In this document: positions 6,424-17,353 of the stretch, piece after piece
Layout: every line of letters starts with the position of its first letter
How positions within the stretch are numbered: the first letter of the stretch is position 1
Virus genome (UHGV): UHGV-0299912
Reading direction: 5' to 3' (one strand)
DNA length: 34,856 bases
Origin: a virus
Program-made: the position numbers and the translations under genes
The notes under the pieces: generated by a model
The model's input: only the letters and a program-made list of their open reading frames with translations
Databases searched by the model: none
Told to the model about the DNA's origin: nothing

Positions 6424-6458
6424 GAACGAGTATTGATTTGGCACATAGCCTTGCTCAA

Positions 6459-6463
6459 ATTGG
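6459..6463. repeat. Target-site duplication ATTGG, left copy
   Basis: Identical 5-bp ATTGG immediately flanks both IS ends. Confidence 0.8.
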
Positions 6464-8471
<2,008 letters not shown>

Positions 8472-9844: not shown

Positions 9845-10081
9845 ATGTCTCGACTAATCACTTTACAGGACTGGGCTAAAGAAGAATTTGGGGACTTAGC
9901 ACCAAGTGAGCGAGTTCTGAAAAAATACGCGCAAGGGAAAATGATGGCCCCACCCGCTATAAAAGTTGGTCGCTACTGGATGATTGACCGAAATTCCCGT
10001 TTTGTAGGAACGCTTGCAGAACCGCAACTCCCAATAAACGCAAACCCAAAACTCCAACGGATAATCGCTGATGGCTGCTAG
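9845..10081 (+). CDS. xis: Excisionase
   Basis: 78-aa ORF immediately upstream of and overlapping int; strong AAGAGGAGG Shine-Dalgarno; sequence recognised as an E. coli prophage excisionase type. Confidence 0.8.
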   Translation: MSRLITLQDWAKEEFGDLAPSERVLKKYAQGKMMAPPAIKVGRYWMIDRNSRFVGTLAEPQLPINANPKLQRIIADGC

Positions 10082-11213
10082 ACCCCGATCTCACAAAATC
10101 TCTATACCCAATTTATATTGCAAATTAGATAAGCGAACCGGAAAGGTATATTGGCAATACAAACATCCACTATCCGGTCGTTTTCATAGCTTAGGAACTG
10201 ATGAGAATGAAGCAAAACAAGTTGCTACTGAAGCAAATACCATTATTGCTGAACAACGTACCCGACAAATATTAAGCGTCAATGAGCGTCTGGAAAGAAT
10301 GAAAGGCAGGCGCTCAGACATTACGGTGACAGAATGGCTTGATAAATATATTTCTATCCAGGAGGACAGGCTGCAACATAATGAACTAAGACCCAACTCC
10401 TATCGGCAAAAAGGCAAACCCATTCGTCTTTTCCGTGAGCATTGTGGAATGCAACACCTCAAGGATATTACCGCACTTGATATTGCCGAAATGATTGATG
10501 CTGTAAAGGCTGAAGGTCATAACAGGATGGCGCAAGTCGTGAGAATGGTGTTAATCGACGTCTTCAAAGAAGCACAACACGCAGGACATGTTCCGCCAGG
10601 ATTTAACCCAGCGCAGGCAACAAAACAACCGCGAAATCGAGTAAACCGCCAAAGATTATCACTGCCCGAATGGCAGGCAATATTTGACAGCGTAAGCAGA
10701 CGGCAGCCCTATTTAAAATGCGGGATGCTACTTGCTCTTGTCACTGGACAACGTTTAGGCGATATCTGCAATTTGAAATTCTCTGATATCTGGGACGACA
10801 TGTTGCACATTACTCAGGAAAAAACCGGTTCAAAACTTGCTATTCCGCTTAACCTGAAATGCGATGCTCTGAATATTACCCTTCGTGAAGTTATATCTCA
10901 GTGCAGGGATGCTGTTGTTAGTAAATATCTGGTCCATTACCGTCACACAACCTCTCAAGCAAACAGAGGAGACCAGGTTTCTGCGAATACTCTGACAACG
11001 GCTTTTAAAAAGGCCAGGGAAAAATGTGGCATAAAATGGGAGCAAGGAACTGCGCCCACATTTCATGAGCAGCGATCTCTGTCAGAACGGTTATATCGGG
11101 AACAGGGTCTGGATACGCAAAAGTTGTTAGGCCATAAATCCAGAAAAATGACCGACCGATACAATGATGATCGTGGTAAAGACTGGATTATCGTAGATAT
11201 CAAAACAGCATAG
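10071..11213 (+). CDS. int: Tyrosine site-specific integrase
   Basis: 380-aa ORF with a tyrosine-recombinase C-terminal catalytic region (R...HxxR...Y context: LGHKSRKMTDRY). Adjacent to xis and the icd 3' fragment. Confidence 0.93.
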   Translation: MAARPRSHKISIPNLYCKLDKRTGKVYWQYKHPLSGRFHSLGTDENEAKQVATEANTIIAEQRTRQILSVNERLERMKGRRSDITVTEWLDKYISIQEDRLQHNELRPNSYRQKGKPIRLFREHCGMQHLKDITALDIAEMIDAVKAEGHNRMAQVVRMVLIDVFKEAQHAGHVPPGFNPAQATKQPRNRVNRQRLSLPEWQAIFDSVSRRQPYLKCGMLLALVTGQRLGDICNLKFSDIWDDMLHITQEKTGSKLAIPLNLKCDALNITLREVISQCRDAVVSKYLVHYRHTTSQANRGDQVSANTLTTAFKKAREKCGIKWEQGTAPTFHEQRSLSERLYREQGLDTQKLLGHKSRKMTDRYNDDRGKDWIIVDIKTA

Positions 11214-11223
11214 AAAACAGCCA

Positions 11224-11260
11224 GTTTTGGGGAAGGGTTTTGGGGAAAGTTTTGGGGAAG
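11224..11260. repeat. Three tandem 12-bp direct repeats GTTTTGGGGAAG / GTTTTGGGGAAA / GTTTTGGGGAAG
   Basis: Copies at 11224..11235, 11237..11248 and 11249..11260, 11 bp after the int stop and between int and the icd fragment. Candidate arm-type Int binding sites. Confidence 0.7.
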
Positions 11261-11280
11261 ATTTTACATCATCATAAAAC

Positions 11281-11303
11281 AACGGGCGTGTTATACGCCC
11301 GTT
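11281..11303. terminator. Bidirectional hairpin terminator between int and the icd fragment
   Basis: Perfect 9-bp stem AACGGGCGT / ACGCCCGTT with loop GTTAT. T-rich 3' flank on the plus strand (TTAAATATTT) and TTTT on the minus strand. Confidence 0.6.
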
Positions 11304-11326
11304 TAAATATTTAACACATGTAGTGA

Positions 11327-11494
11327 TTACATATTCTTGATGATCGCATCACCAAACTCTGAACATTTCAGCAGTTTAGCGCCTTCCATCAGACGTTCGA
11401 AGTCATAGGTTACGGTCTTGGCATTGATTGCGCCTTCCATACCTTTAACAATCAGGTCTGCGGCTTCGGTCCAACCCATGTGGCGCAGCAGCAT
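11327..11494 (-). pseudogene. icd: 3'-terminal fragment of isocitrate dehydrogenase gene icd (phage-borne att homology, e14 type)
   Basis: Minus-strand translation ...[55 protein letters not shown] is the Icd C-terminus as I recall it. Homology stops at ~11494, where the sitC sequence begins; there is no icd 5' region. Confidence 0.85.
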
Positions 11495-11496
11495 AT

Positions 11497-12180
11497 ATGC
11501 TGGGGCTTCCGTTTTCTCTGGGAGCCTTCTTTTCCGGCGGACTGGCTGCGGGCAGCATGCTGTTTCTTAACCAACGCACCCGCTTAAAAGAAGATGCCAT
11601 CATCGGCCTGATCTTCTCGTCCTTTTTTGGCCTGGGGCTGTTTATGGTGTCATTGAACCCGACATCTGTGAACATTCAGACCATCGTCCTGGGCAATATT
11701 CTGGCAATCGATCCGGCGGATATCCTGCAACTCACTATCATTGGCATTCTCTCGATCATCGTGCTTTTTTTCAAATGGAAAGATCTTATGGTGACCTTTT
11801 TCGACGAGAATCACGCCCGTGCTATTGGATTGCATCCGGGCAGATTAAAACTCCTCTTCTTCACCCTGCTGTCGGTTTCGACCGTTGCGGCGCTGCAAAC
11901 GGTTGGTGCCTTTCTGGTGATCTGTCTGGTGGTGACTCCCGGAGCAACAGCATGGTTGTTAACCGATCGTTTTCCCCGCCTGCTCATGATTGCTGTAACT
12001 ATTGGCAGTGTAACCAGTTTCCTCGGCGCGTGGGTCAGTTACTTTCTGGACGGCGCGACAGGTGGAATCATCGTGGTGGCGCAGACACTGCTGTTTCTTT
12101 TAGCATTTGTCTTTGCGCCCACCCATGGGCTTTTGGCAAATCGTCGGCGTGCGCATAAGGCGCTGGAGGATCGCTCATGA
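11497..12180 (+). pseudogene. sitC: 5'-truncated sitC (Mn/Fe ABC transporter permease)
   Basis: 227-aa frame matching the SitC/MntC/YfeC permease family from about residue 60 onward. The N-terminal ~60 codons, sitA and sitB are absent. Overlaps the sitD start (ATGA). Confidence 0.85.
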
Positions 12181-13034
12181 TGGCATTATTACTGGAGCCA
12201 CTGCAGTTCACCTTTATGAGTCACGCACTGCTGATTTCACTGGTAGTTTCCATACCCTGTGCGCTGCTGTCGGTCTTTCTGGTCCTGAAAGGCTGGGCAC
12301 TGATGGGTGACGCGATGAGTCATGCGGTTTTTCCTGGCATCGTGCTTGCCTGGATTCTGGGGTTACCTTTGGCTACAGGGGCATTCGTCGCCGGAGTATT
12401 CTGCGCGGTGGCGACGGGATACCTGAAAGACAACAGCCGAATCAAGCAAGATACAGTGATGGGGATTGTTTTTTCTGGCATGTTTGCCGCAGGTCTGATT
12501 TTGTATATTGCAGTCAAACCAGACGTACATCTTGACCATATTCTTTTCGGCGACATGCTCGGGATAACCATCGGCGATATAATCCAGACGGTGATTATTG
12601 CTGGGCTGGTTACACTTGTTATTAGCGTAAAATGGCGAGATTTTTTGCTGTTCAGCTTTGATTATCAACAGGCGCAGGTAAGCGGTTTGCATACGAGATG
12701 GCTGCATTATGGGCTGCTGTGCATGGTCTCTCTGACCATTGTGGCGACGCTGAAAGCGGTAGGTATTATTCTCTCCATTTCTCTGCTCATTGCGCCTGGC
12801 GCCATTGCGGTACTCCTGACACAACGCTTTTATATTGCGCTCCTACTGGCGACTGGCATATCGGTAATAGTGTCAATGATCGGTGTCTGGCTGTCCTTTT
12901 TTATCGACAGCGCACCAGCTCCGACGATTGTCGTCTTATTCGCGGTCGCGTTCATCATGACGTTTACCGTTACCAGCATCAACGCACGCACAAAGGGAAA
13001 CGCCCATACACAGGATCTGTTATCACCCAATTAG
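12177..13034 (+). CDS. sitD: SitD (Mn/Fe ABC transporter permease)
   Basis: 285-aa polytopic membrane protein of the ABC-3 permease family, immediately downstream of sitC. Confidence 0.88.
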   Translation: MMALLLEPLQFTFMSHALLISLVVSIPCALLSVFLVLKGWALMGDAMSHAVFPGIVLAWILGLPLATGAFVAGVFCAVATGYLKDNSRIKQDTVMGIVFSGMFAAGLILYIAVKPDVHLDHILFGDMLGITIGDIIQTVIIAGLVTLVISVKWRDFLLFSFDYQQAQVSGLHTRWLHYGLLCMVSLTIVATLKAVGIILSISLLIAPGAIAVLLTQRFYIALLLATGISVIVSMIGVWLSFFIDSAPAPTIVVLFAVAFIMTFTVTSINARTKGNAHTQDLLSPN

Positions 13035-13696
13035 CACAACATCCGAGGACATCATCGTCCGCCAGCCTACAGCAGTCCGGAAAGTCATGGAAGGTCGTTG
13101 GGAGGAGGTACGAATTCTATCATGCAAAAAATACGTAAAATCGATAATAGCTGGAAATAATTCAATACATGCACTCTCGAAAGTGCATCAGCCAACCGTG
13201 GCACGTTTTTGCATACAACGAGCCACGGTTCTCTTTACGATTTATAGCTGTATTGGTGAACTATGAGCAATTTTCGCGTTATATTCCAATCTTTAATCTC
13301 TTAACGGAACAAGTTGCATGCATGACTATATCAAGACAACTTATAACTACCAAAACATTTGCTTTGCAAGCAAAAACGGGGACCATTAACTCTAAGAAAA
13401 ATCCGATCTATTGTTAGGATTATTAAAGTTACTTAACAGTATTCCGAAATGAAAATACAAAGTAAGCTGATTGTCTTATTAAACATTATCATTGCATTTA
13501 TACTATTTGAGCTTTTAGATCAAAAATTCGGTTTGAGTACATTATTTTAAAGCAAGATAAATAATATCGGGCACTCTAGTTTTTATAATTAACAATTAAA
13601 CGCCCATAAAATGTTATTTACGTTTCTTCGCTATTGTAATATCTTAATATAGTGGTTTACGCCACTCTACTTTCATCATATTTTGTACGTTTATGT

Positions 13697-13725
13697 AATC
13701 GCCATGAAACTCTTTCATGGCGATT
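13697..13725. other. Perfect 13-bp stem, 3-nt loop hairpin (AATCGCCATGAAA-CTC-TTTCATGGCGATT) in the AT-rich spacer
   Basis: Seen directly; the plus-strand 3' flank is T-rich (TCTTATTCTT). Possible terminator or regulatory structure. Confidence 0.4.
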
Positions 13726-13814
13726 TCTTATTCTTAATCCAAGAACATAGTCCCTATCTATAGCAAAATTACTTTTGAACAAAAGAATAACGTATTTAGG
13801 TAATCATTACGAAT

Positions 13815-14396
13815 TTACCCTATAGGTGCTACTGGCCACTCAATATCCGGTACTACTGATGTATCAACACGGTTCAGCAACACCCGATACTTTTTCCAGG
13901 CTTCCAGCAACAAGGTTTCTTCCTCCGTTGCGATCTCCAGATCTACAGCATCCTGAAGCGGCGCTATATGCTCACTGGCTACCTGCATCAGGCTGTTTTT
14001 TGTTTCTTCCGCCTCCCGGATCCGGAACAGTTTTTCTGCTTCCGTATCCTTCACCCAGGCTGTACCGTTCCACTTCTGAAACTCCCCTTCCGGGGATAAC
14101 CAGGTGACATTTTCCGGTAATGAGCCGAGTTCAGAAATAAATAACGCGTCGCCGGAAGCCACGTCATAGACCGTTTTTCCCCGATGGTCTTCAACGAGAT
14201 GCCACGATGCCTCATCACTGTTGAAAACAGCCACAAAGCCAGCCGGAATATCTGGCGGTGCAATATCGGTACTGTTTGCAGGCAGACCTGTATGAGGCGG
14301 AATATATGCGTCACCTTCACCAATAAATTCATTAGTTCCGGCCAGCAGGTTATAAATTTTTATGGTCCGTGCTTGTTCACTCATTCTGAATGCCAT
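13815..14396 (-). CDS. tfa: Tail fiber assembly protein
   Basis: 193-aa ORF directly downstream of stf, with TAATG stop/start overlap; recognised as the lambda/Rac Tfa family. Confidence 0.85.
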
Positions 14397-17347
14397 TATG
14401 CGAGCCTCACAATATAGTTAAATGCGATGTTTTTGACGGTGTTTTCCGCGTTACCAGCAGCGTTAACGGTGATGGTGTGTCCATGTGAACCAATCGCAAC
14501 AGAGTGCGTATGAGCACCAATACCGACAGTATGCGCGTGTGCACCCGCAGATGCTGCTGTGCCGGACAGTGAGTGTGTATGGTTTCCTTCTGAAGATGAT
14601 TTACCTACCCATTGGGAGGTGCCACTGGTTAATGAGCCACTGATACCAACCTGATTAGTCCCGCTAACTTGAGTACTCCCTGCCGGAAACATTCCAGTAG
14701 GTTGACTCCCGCTATTCGTTCTGGGCCCAGTCTGACTATGTTGGTGGGCCCCAGCTGAACTTGTAGAGCCGCTCAGACTGTGCGTATGCGCCCCGGTGTT
14801 ATTCGTGGATTTAGTGCCGTAATCAAACGACGATGTGGTTTTCGTCCCCAAATCCGTACTGGATGCGCTGGCGCTGTGGGTGTGCGATTTTATGCCGTCC
14901 TGTTCCTGAGACAATACGGCCCGACCACTGGCAGGTTTGCCCTTAATCGTCCAGCCACGCATATCAGGGATCACGCCTGACGGATAAGCGGCTGCAAGTT
15001 TCGGGTATGCAGATTTGTCAAAAGTCTGCCCCTGCATCAGGGCATAACCAGACGGAACGGTATCTGATGGCCACGGGATTGGTGCACCGACTGGATAAAA
15101 CTCTGCAGGAGGATGAGCCGAGGTGTAAAGCTGCGCCCACGGCGACCAGTTTGCGTCGATCGTATCCCGTCGTGAACGAATAAATGCCGGAGCATGAGCA
15201 CCGCTTGTACCACTCCAGCCGATGAGTAACTCACCTTCGCCAACGGCTGTCATCCCTTTCAGGTGAATGATATTTCCATACGCTGTTGGATATCCGTTGT
15301 TATACACCTCGTATAACTCAAGACCTGTTGCCCCCTGCGTATTGTCTGTCAGCGCGGTTACCCGACCTTTTGAAGCCAGATTAACTGATGATACTGCTGT
15401 TCCACCTGACGGTAATGCCCCGATCTCTGATGCCGTTGGCTTATTTCTGGAGTTATAGTCCCTTCGCCAGCCAGGTGAATAATCTGTTCCGTGATTAATA
15501 TAGGTAAACTGGGCGTTAGTTGTTCCGCCACCAGTGGAGGTGGTCGGTGTGGTAATGCGGATCGTCATCGCTGACTTTATCCCCATTACTTCAATGACGG
15601 CTCCTGCGAGATGAATATTACCGCAGCCAGTATCAGTAATGATTTTATTATTGCCATAAGACCAGGAACCCTTGCACATCCAGTATGGATGGTTAAATGC
15701 TCCCTGAGAATCCAGCCACTCGATAAACTGTGCAGTCGTCCAGTTTCCTGTTGTTGTGCTTACTGACCCACCGAAGGCACGGCAGGCACCAATATTTTTC
15801 GTAAAGGTGTCTTTGCCAGGGATATCCGCACCGTTCTGATCTTTCTGCAGACGTTTCTCAGCATTGTCATTGGCTGCTTTTACTGCCTTTGGCGTTGCCG
15901 CCAGCGTTTCAGACGTGCTGTTGGTCGCACTGCTGAGCTGTACTATCCCCTTTTTCGTCGTGCTCGCATCCTCAAGCGCCACGGCGGATGCAATATCCTC
16001 TGCCCGTTTTGCTGCTGTCTCGGCGCGCGTTGCCGCGGATTCCGCCGTACTTTTGCTCTGAGCTGCCGCCGTCGCACTACCAGCTGCCTCTGTCGCCTTC
16101 GTGGATGCCGTCGTGGCGCTGCCTTTCGCTGCTGATGCCTGTCTGCTCGCCTCATCTTTTGAAGCAGACGCAGATGATGCCGATGACGCCGCCGAACTGG
16201 CGGACGATGCAGCTGCCATTTTTGAGGATTCTGCACTGGTTTCCGAGGCTTTCGCGTTCGTTTCGGATGTCTTCGCTGCGGATGCAGACCTCGCTGCTGC
16301 GCTGGCCTGTTCAGCGGCTTCGCCAGCCTTCGTTGTGGCTGTTGAAGCGGACAATGCAGCGCTTTCTGCCGATTTTCCGGCGGCAGTGGCTCTGGCTGAG
16401 GCCTGCCCGGCACTTGTTGACGCGGCACTGGCAGATGATGCAGCCGCTGTTTTTGAGCCTGCCGCAGCTGAGGCACTCTGTCCCGCTGCCGTTTCAGAAG
16501 ACCTGGCGTTCGTCTCGGACGTTTTTGCCGCCTTCGCGGAATTTGCTGCCGCCGTTGCCGAGGAAGCGGAACTACTGGCGCTCGAGGATGCGTTCGTTTC
16601 TGATGATTTCGCTGCCTCTTTTGAGGCCGCCGCATCCCGGGCTGAGGTGGCAGCTTCTGACGCTTTCGTGGTCGCGGTGGATGCAGAAGTGGCTGCTGAT
16701 TGTTGTGACGCTGCGGCATTCGTTTCTGACGTTTTCGCCGCACCGGCACTGGTAGCCGCCGCGCTTTTTGAGGACTCTGCAGCGGCAGCACTTTTTGATG
16801 CTTCAGTGGCCTTTGCTGATGCCGTTCCTGCGCTGGAAGACGCTGACTGAGCCGACGACACGGCCTGTCCGGCTGACGTGCTGGCTGCGCGTGCTGAGTC
16901 TGCAGCATCAGTCGCATGGGTTGCCGCCTCACGGGCTGATGTGCTGGCATCGCCGGCTGACTTCTTCGCGGCTGCCGTGTTCTGTGCCACTGCGGACGCG
17001 TTACGCGCCACCTCTTCCACCATCACTTCAAAACGGCGCAGTGCCTCCGGACGGGCATCATCCTCCGTCATGGCACCGAGAAAATCATTCAGCGTACCGG
17101 GTTGAGAATCTTCATACACGGTGATAGTCCCGGCATGTGACGGCGGGAATCCCTCCACCAACAGAATAACGCTGTACTGACCATACTCAACGTCCATACT
17201 GTAACGCCCGGCTTCATCCGGATTTTCTGAGGCCAGCGTGTTCACCACCACCGTGGTACTGTTACGTTTTGCTTTCAGCTGGATTGTGCAGTTCTGTACC
17301 GGTTTTCCTGTGCCGTCTTTCAGTACACCAGAAATCTTTACTGCCAT
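14396..17347 (-). CDS. stf: Side tail fiber protein (StfR-like)
   Basis: ORF-track frame 14396..17353. Start placed at ATG 17347 ([18 protein letters not shown]...). Long Ala/Ser/Thr-rich repeat region, and a C-terminal region with HTHS/GAHAH repeats ending [11 protein letters not shown], as I recall for Rac StfR. Confidence 0.88.
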
Positions 17348-17353
17348 ATTCAC

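Follow-up and report, generated by a model that had tools for sequence, protein, structure and literature searches.

Why does a phage genome keep only the distal part of a sitABCD metal-transport operon beside its integrase gene, and what removed the remainder? The window analyzed here, the whole stretch of 34,856 nucleotides from the virus genome UHGV-0299912, contains a shortened sitC gene (sitC′, 11,497–12,180, + strand), whose product of 227 amino acids (aa) corresponds to SitC residues 59–285, and a full-length sitD gene (12,177–13,034, + strand, 285 aa). A sequence-only reading of this DNA had placed the two open reading frames (ORFs) at 11,497–13,034 between the integrase gene and the tail-fibre genes, on the strand opposite to the late genes, and had described them as a decaying moron of the SitC/SitD family without sitA and sitB. 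These coordinates are exact, and sitC′ and sitD are indeed encoded on the + strand, against tfa and stf on the − strand. What that reading overlooked is a fragment of icd (icd′) and the phage attachment (att) site attP, which lie between int and sitC′. In the reading that we favor, with a probability of roughly 70% on sequence comparison, the phage integrase (Int) would have promoted a deletion by recombining attP with a pseudo-att site in sitC, as in the b2-class deletions of phage lambda.

Pfam, NCBIfam and DNA identities of 98.7–100% agree on the family of the two genes, which the sequence-only reading had named correctly. The sitC′ ORF matches the Pfam profile ABC-3 (PF00950) with an E value of 3e-59, covering only profile positions 52–257 of 258, and the sitD ORF matches the whole profile with an E value of 1.5e-75; NCBIfam assigns both products to metal ATP-binding cassette (ABC) permease families. 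The window therefore holds two ABC-3 permease subunits, as a SitABCD system does. The 3 kilobases (kb) of DNA at 11,491–14,500, comprising sitC–sitD and the downstream region, are 100% identical to the icd prophage of Escherichia coli SCU-111, with identical SitD proteins, and the sitC–sitD part is 98.7% identical to that of phage 21. The other two genes are missing, as had been noticed before: neither sitA nor sitB is found upstream of sitC′ in the window, where icd′ and int occupy their place. The complete operon, with SitA, SitB and a promoter controlled by Fur/MntR, is likewise not found, and the corresponding phage 21 segment (L002, 2185–6000) is absent.

The sequence-only reading had proposed a search for intact sitABCD at the same position in related phages, and such operons are found there in phage 21, in the SCU-111 and ST80 prophages and in about 27 phage records. 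In phage 21 (OL657228) the order is int, three dodecamers, a terminator, icd′, the core, about 1.9 kb of further DNA, sitA, sitB, sitC, sitD and the tail fibre. At attR of the SCU-111 and ST80 prophages it is icd′, the core, about 0.9 kb, sitABCD and tfa. The window aligns with these relatives on both sides of a gap, which measures 3,823 base pairs (bp) against phage 21 and 2,822 bp against SCU-111. The lost DNA (2.8–3.8 kb) comprises the P arm of attP, the region upstream of sitA with the sit promoter, sitA, sitB and sitC codons 1–58, so that sitC′ is fused directly to the attP core. The left endpoint of the deletion falls at 11,490/11,491 or within the next seven bases, which are shared. Since intact relatives fill the same slot, the cassette is rightly called a moron remnant; slow decay is not borne out, as there is a single clean deletion and the remainder is 100% identical. 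The truncation is recent, because the remaining DNA is still identical to intact alleles. Because the deletion ends at the attP core and removes the P arm as well, comparison of the sequences suggests with good probability a scar of site-specific recombination and not random erosion.

The presence of sit genes on such phages is well documented. The phage 21 genome carries sitABCD (PMC9119081), and sitABCD is found on 70% of infant-gut lambda-like phages, where all sit carriers have a Fur box upstream (PMC6969025). In phage ev099, the same slot holds a gene for an AraC-family regulator and transposase remnants instead of sit. The slot between attP and the tail fibres is a moron hot spot.

To place the left endpoint, we examined the integration module of the window. 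The excisionase gene xis (9,845–10,081, + strand) is an ORF syntenic with the phage 21 excisionase gene. The adjoining int gene (10,071–11,213, + strand) encodes a phage-21-type tyrosine integrase with the Pfam domains Arm-DNA-bind_1 and Phage_integrase, which is identical to phage 21 Int at 376 of 380 residues. Next to int, three arm-type dodecamers YYTTCCCCAAAA (11,225–11,261, − strand) form the P′ arm of attP; all three are exact matches, and they are annotated as attP subsites in phage 21. Their positions, −266, −253 and −241 from the core end, are the same in two prophages inserted in cbtA (L024 and L026, see below), and the dodecamers of phage 21 and of SCU-111 attL occupy equivalent positions. 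The icd′ fragment (11,276–11,490, − strand), a phage-borne icd 3′ end of 215 bp, is 94% identical to host icd; its ORF (11,327–11,494, 55 aa) matches positions 362–416 of 416 in the profile of NADP isocitrate dehydrogenase. A GC-rich hairpin at 11,281–11,303 would serve as terminator for the reading direction of icd′: it is terminator-like on the minus strand only, and a terminator is annotated at the corresponding position of phage 21. Over the 100 bases compared beside the core, the icd′ allele of the window is identical to that of SCU-111 attL.

Phages that integrate in icd bring a substitute 3′ end for the interrupted gene, as seen in the phage 21 annotation and in attL and attR of SCU-111. 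The window has this icd 3′ end together with a core identical to attB up to its final CGCAGCA. The left core arm CCCATGTGG (11,475–11,483), derived from attP on the C′ side, was located by alignments. It is followed by the putative 7-bp overlap, that is, the crossover region, CGCAGCA (11,484–11,490), and base 11,490 is the last base common to attP and attB; the identity between the two ends at this base in phage 21, in SCU-111 and in three unrelated icd-targeting attP types from IMG/VR. In phage 21, SCU-111 and ST80, a fourth arm-type dodecamer, likewise an exact match, is found precisely 120 bp past the core, and the outermost dodecamers of attP span 397 bp. This P-arm dodecamer is gone from the window, which contains no further copy, so arm sites are found on one side of the core only. 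The window thus contains an att site in the attP arrangement, but a damaged one, because icd′ is followed by neither the 5′ part of icd nor a P arm. The best explanation of the whole is a phage-21-like lambdoid genome in circular or virion arrangement, with early genes, xis, int, the P′ arm, icd′, the core, the b region and the tail fibres in this order.

The junction itself shows which sites were joined. In attB, the left arm CCCATGTGG is followed by the overlap CGCAGCA and the right arm TCATCTC. In attP, the left arm CCCAT(G/A)TGG precedes the same overlap, and the right arm is G(T/C)ATATAAAAA. The corresponding site in sitC consists of the left arm CCCGGGTGT, the overlap TGCGGGG and the right arm GCATATATGCTGG, and the junction in the window combines the left arm CCCATGTGG and the overlap CGCAGCA with the right arm GCATATATGCTGG. 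The novel joint GCATATA (11,491–11,497) is common to sitC and to the variant of the P arm with C at position 18 (C-18), so that the switch point is ambiguous within these seven bases. Against the 23-base sequence spanning the core in its T-18 form, the sitC site matches at 15 of 23 positions and is the best site in direct orientation within the dispensable b region. Against the C-18/G-6 form, which is possibly the parental one, the match is 16/23, as counted by hand from alignments. To the left of the shared heptamer, 9 of 16 bases match the core, a level reached at 0.9% of positions. The right half-site of the sitC site, GCATAT, is identical to the C site of the P arm and is probably a core-type half-site, judging from its recurrence. 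The window therefore has what characterizes a b2-class deletion at both ends: one endpoint in the attP crossover region with the P′ arm and int kept, and a core-like partner site in direct orientation in dispensable DNA. Polymorphisms between attL and attR narrow the crossover less closely; those of SCU-111 limit it to 22 bases, and the ST80 sites share one allele.

A second allele of this junction emerged from a lookup of the exact 227-aa SitC′ product in public assemblies, which led to the metagenome contigs L013, L014 and L020 from at least three samples. All three contigs have the order xis, int, icd′, sitC′, sitD; they are ERZ27313971 k141_1383 (25.5 kb), an 18.2-kb contig found in two samples and a Logan contig from ERR3277287. 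Their junction has the left arm CCCATATGG, the overlap TGCGGGG and the right arm GCATATATGCTGG. The same two sites are thus joined in the same register as in the window, with the switch between positions 9 and 10, and the window and L013-type junctions differ only in positions 10–16, where the window has the attP-type CGCAGCA and the contigs the sitC-type TGCGGGG. Such a pair of product alleles around a fixed overlap of 6–8 bp is the third mark of a b2-class deletion. A tyrosine recombinase that exchanges one strand at either end of a non-identical overlap leaves a heteroduplex, which segregates into two alleles, as at the secondary sites of lambda. The icd′ alleles beside the two junctions differ (five differences within about 60 bases), and the right flank is SCU-111-like in the window and phage-21-like in the L013 type; therefore, the two junctions are probably independent events. 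Even if both alleles descend from a single event, comparison of their sequences points to the same mechanism.

The same lookup returned contigs that do not bear on this allele. Four of them (L017, L018, L021 and L022) start 1–2 bases before the sitC′ ATG, and we considered a shared breakpoint; this was rejected as a selection effect of the exact-protein lookup. In L016 (3687–4544), a change of Trp39 to a stop codon in an otherwise intact sitABCD gives the same 227-aa ORF independently. L015 (1–781) belongs to a contig with Tn3 and aerobactin genes, and its sitC sequence changes upstream of the same ORF.

The second allele also bears on whether Int was needed at all. Deletions at repeats of 5–10 bases are common in bacteria and phages, the window junction lies inside a G(C/T)ATATA sequence common to both parents, and P arms with a perfect GCATATA are known. 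Slippage or short-homology recombination between the GCATATA repeats, with the position at the core a coincidence, would fit the window junction. Such an illegitimate deletion leaves three features unexplained: the 9/16 match to the core on the left of the repeat, the endpoint at the exact end of attP/attB identity, and the allele of L013, L014 and L020, which uses the same sites and register with zero microhomology, since both bases neighboring its switch point differ between the parents. We regard it as quite improbable.

In the proposed deletion by Int, an ancestral phage would have had the usual complete sitABCD moron, flanked by the attP P arm on one side and the tail-fibre genes on the other. 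Int would have recombined the attP core with the look-alike site in sitC, in direct orientation and on the same DNA molecule, the presumed parent sites being CCCATGTGG-CGCAGCA-GCATATA in attP and CCCGGGTGT-TGCGGGG-GCATATA in sitC. In sit-carrying phages, the sitC site is only 3–4 kb from attP on the same molecule. The excised circle would have taken with it the P arm, the Fur-regulated sit promoter, sitA, sitB and the 5′ end of sitC, and strand exchange at both ends of the heteroduplex 7-bp overlap would give two segregants, the window type and the L013 type. A wider proposal, towards which we incline slightly, is that Int recurrently deletes the sit moron and the P arm in one step and so converts a temperate phage of benefit to its host into a cargo-less, integration-defective variant that still circulates in the gut. 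In this proposal, sitC and cbtA would belong to a small set of natural pseudo-sites that consist of GCATAT and the 7-bp overlap, the two alleles would map the crossover to TGCTGCG in icd, and the L013 type would be a site-affinity variant with the sitC overlap.

Several points weigh against the role assigned to Int. If the parent was of the C-18 form, the window junction lies in the 7-base identity GCATATA and, taken alone, also fits microhomology slippage independent of Int. The overlaps of attP and sitC agree at only 3 of 7 positions, and for lambda Int such a match would make recombination very inefficient. The cleavage positions of a phage 21-type Int, and hence the 7-bp overlap, are those that we infer from the alleles, and an imperfect palindrome, ATGTGGC-GCAGCAT, is centered 2.5 bases to the left of the proposed overlap center. 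Furthermore, the window covers only part of the genome, which bears on the alternative of an insertion considered below. Finally, the requirement for the P arm in phage 21 is argued from lambda together with the minimal attP of phage 21, which we take to span the outermost dodecamers.

We next consider where the junctions occur. A 241-bp probe of the window-type junction gave no spanning record by BLAST in 5,426 complete E. coli genomes or in 50,697 phage records, and a 241-bp probe of the L013-type junction gave none in the same E. coli genomes, well over a thousand of which carry the identical sitC segment. In exact-pattern scans, strict and degenerate, both junctions were absent from IMG/VR and the JGI metagenomes, and the window-type junction was also absent from GTDB representatives. 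The window-type junction is therefore unique to the window across all collections searched, as would be expected of an assembly or chimera artefact. Against this, the seven or fewer shared bases are far too short for an assembler to mis-join, and the sister junction came out of independent assemblies of at least three samples, made with different pipelines; an artefact is extremely unlikely.

The att site left in the window, made of the P′ arm, the core and the sitC arm, is attL-like and has no P-arm dodecamer. By analogy with lambda, a phage with this deletion should have lost the capacity for normal integration at icd. The absence of the junctions from complete E. coli genomes is in keeping with a variant that is not maintained as a prophage, although it is no proof of this.

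Evidence that the integrase family uses other pseudo-sites comes from prophages in cbtA. A lookup of the 55-aa icd′ ORF led to two draft genomes, GCA_012623385.1 (L024) and GCA_013025025.1 (L026), in which, near position 10,020, the core of a prophage that has the three dodecamers and icd′ runs into the 3′ part of the toxin gene cbtA; this is the int-side junction. The integrases of these prophages are identical to that of the window at 378–379 of 380 residues. The two insertions lie in different CP4-type islands and in paralogous genes, one beside cadCBA and the other in CP4-44 beside sbcB. The intact cbtA target of strain K-12 (L033, 585–607) reads AACGTGTGA-TTGAGCA-GCATATTGAGG. Thus, GCATAT stands directly to the right of the presumed overlap in the P-arm C site, in sitC and in cbtA, whereas attB has TCATCT at this place. 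As read from these junction sequences, the phage-21-type integrase demonstrably uses pseudo-sites with GCATAT beside the overlap. The cbtA junction is absent from the 5,426 complete E. coli genomes.

These insertions into real chromosomes lend weight to a different history, in which a phage-21-like phage integrated by means of Int into the sitC pseudo-site of a second, resident sit-carrying prophage. The two halves of the window would then derive from two prophages. Some 45 kb away one would expect the P arm, sitA, sitB and the 5′ end of sitC, and the same molecule would carry a reciprocal junction of the sitC 5′ part, the overlap and GCATATAAAAAC from the P arm. The int-side junction would look identical after a deletion or an insertion, and the window stops short of the region where the reciprocal junction would be sought. 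Nevertheless, one genome suffices, since both halves of the window are near a single prophage of E. coli strain 2A (early region 99.9%, late region 99.5%). By analogy with lambda, attL and attR of the resident prophage should be better targets than an overlap with four mismatches in seven, and shared immunity, if present, would block Int expression from the incoming phage. Neither junction occurs in the complete E. coli genomes, where double lysogens would be visible. On balance an insertion of this kind is unlikely.

Further variation of att sites was observed in the genomes compared. In L030 (GCA_002950055.1, CP026831.1), an attR near position 10,020 stands beside an intact sitABCD and has the overlap CGTAACA instead of CGCAGCA. 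Both changes fall within the presumed 7-bp overlap and leave the icd product unaltered (Leu CTG to TTA); CGTAACA may have arisen naturally as an overlap variant, in either the phage or the host. In Salmonella-type sequences (L023, L025, L027 and L032, about 10,000–16,200), an e14-like element with an invertase, an HNH nuclease and tail-fibre fragments lies between two icd′ fragments and adjoins cargo genes of prophages, for example those for SopE and a pertussis-like toxin. In this element the core is the same, but the P arm beyond it, GCATTTTTAAC, is a different one.

What could the remaining genes still do? SitD is complete, retains Asp45 and His49 and has its own GGAGG, and the sitD start overlaps the sitC stop codon (ATGA). 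SitC aligns over residues 10–272 with the manganese permease PsaC (7KYP; E value 1e-43), and its Asp44 and His48 correspond to Asp46 and His50 of PsaC. These two PsaC residues are essential for manganese import, and their mutation severely perturbs manganese accumulation (PMC8346216). Full-length permeases with the Asp/His metal site in transmembrane helix (TM) 2 are not found in the window, because SitC′ begins at Met59; according to the alignment to PsaC, it lacks TM1, nearly all of TM2, and Asp44 and His48. No Shine–Dalgarno sequence precedes the sitC′ ATG at 11,497, and an in-frame stop codon lies upstream at 11,446. The sequence-only reading had suggested looking for a promoter inside sitC′; a promoter scan detected no sigma-70-like site on the + strand between int and sitD, the inside of sitC′ included. 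Without SitA, SitB and a complete partner, a transporter made from sitC′–sitD is predicted from sequence to be unable to import metal. sitD may be read through with early-left transcription, and sitC′–sitD would at most be a 3′ extension of the int message.

Retained function has nevertheless to be weighed, for example pairing of SitD with Sit or Mnt components of the host, or interference with host metal import during infection. The full-length SitD with its metal-site residues and ribosome-binding sequence, its position downstream of int on the same strand, where early-left read-through may reach it, and the occurrence of the L013-type variant in several samples are all compatible with this. 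Opposed to it are the lack of a promoter, sitA and sitB, the loss of TM1–2 and the metal site from SitC′, and the dimeric membrane component of the manganese permease with a solved structure (PsaBC). In addition, 100% identity to intact alleles leaves no time for selection on the remnant. We consider a functional cargo very unlikely.

The proposed deletion by Int is set in a lambdoid genome. Early-left genes, xis and int are on the + strand, and tfa, the side-tail-fibre gene, lom, J, the tail genes and the head genes up to the large terminase are on the − strand. The right border of the moron slot is formed by tfa (13,815–14,396, − strand) and stf (side tail fibre, 14,396–17,353, − strand), both with annotated homologues in SCU-111. 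Between sitD and tfa lies an AT-rich spacer (13,035–13,814) in which homology with the sit module of phage 21 stops near 13,051, and 13,273–13,800 is shared with phages without sit; a terminator-like hairpin is present at 13,697–13,725 (+ strand). A small RNA in this spacer was considered and rejected: the only Rfam match is IS009 inside tfa, and the svsR small RNA of a related prophage lies in cI. The IS009 match (RF02111, 221 bits, 13,855–14,053, − strand) is full length, and the family was probably built on prophage tfa sequence, so that the match would not mark a separate RNA gene here. At 16,000–17,000, the N-terminal half of stf has 62% G+C and a strong AT skew, with long Ala/Ser/Thr-rich repeats and long spurious ORFs in other frames.

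An IS21-family insertion sequence (IS) of the IS100-like type (6,458–8,427; istA 6,550–7,572 and istB 7,569–8,351) interrupts a DUF1382 gene in the exo–xis region. It adds 1,959 bp relative to the 99.9%-identical prophage of strain 2A, a length that the element and a short target duplication would account for. A defence system at 6,550–8,351 was rejected, because this is the IS21-family element and the PADLOC match to DrmD is the IstB ATPase. Provided that the remainder of the genome is like that of strain 2A, the element would put the undeleted genome at about 50.4 kb, near the packaging limit of lambda, and deletion of sit may perhaps have been favored; the L013-type deletion phages do not have this element. 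The strain 2A prophage (NZ_CP146939.1; L006/L007) is the closest to the early region of the window. The record origin cuts this prophage in two, its J gene is in fragments, and a Qin-like locus (ydfJ, ydfK, invertase) adjoins its tail region; either two prophages have recombined or the assembly is at fault here. Because of the split and the joining to a Qin-like tail region, this prophage was rejected as the parent of the deletion.

If the deletion arose as proposed, the integrase of a phage, acting at a look-alike site in its own cargo, could remove a virulence-associated operon and half of the att site in a single step. This would be a route for the loss of morons and also for the loss of lysogenization by temperate phages. 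The sequences offer a testable map of the crossover and of the core half-site for the phage 21/e14 integrase family, with cbtA and sitC as secondary targets. For annotation, a "partial transporter" in the b region of a phage may mark a damaged att site.

Finally, we compared the locus with known systems. With the sitABCD morons of phage 21 and other icd-integrated lambdoid phages, the window shares the slot between attP and the side-tail-fibre genes on the strand opposite to the late genes, the sitC–sitD DNA (98.7–100%), the integrase (99%), the icd′ fragment and the arm repeats. It differs in keeping only the distal 1.5 kb, with the promoter and Fur box, sitA, sitB, 58 sitC codons and the P arm gone. 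Regarding the type II manganese ABC importers PsaBC and MntBC (PDB 7KYP and 7KYO), SitC aligns to PsaC, in which the GDAxSH motif holds the Asp/His site; however, SitC′ starts at residue 59, after this motif, and the importer would be a SitC/SitD heterodimer in contrast to the PsaC homodimer. The elements e14 and phage 21 reportedly integrate in icd. The window resembles them in the substitute icd 3′ end beside int, and the SCU-111 lysogen has attL and attR of the expected hybrid structure, but beyond the core the window continues into sitC, with neither the icd 5′ part nor the P arm.

The closest likeness is to lambda. Its b2-class deletions are said to be promoted by Int between attP and secondary sites in the b region. 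The window agrees with them in endpoints at the att core and at a core-like b-region site in direct orientation, in the loss of the P arm that leaves a ΔP′-type site, and in the retention of int and xis. It differs in the phage 21-type integrase and core with icd as target, in being natural sequence data and not a laboratory selection, and in the loss of a host-benefit operon; here, Int would be the agent. For lambda secondary att sites and saf mutants, non-identical overlaps reportedly segregate into two alleles. Similarly, our two products differ only in the 7-bp block between the presumed cleavage points, and the L013 type has the overlap of the secondary site, although the two alleles occur in different phage backgrounds and samples and not in one cross, and the overlap of phage 21 Int is a presumed one. 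The sitABCD cargo of lambdoid phages is already known, and this type of deletion is classic in lambda genetics; the novelty lies in a natural case from the phage 21 family, in which two overlap alleles occur, a moron has been lost and cbtA is an additional secondary site.

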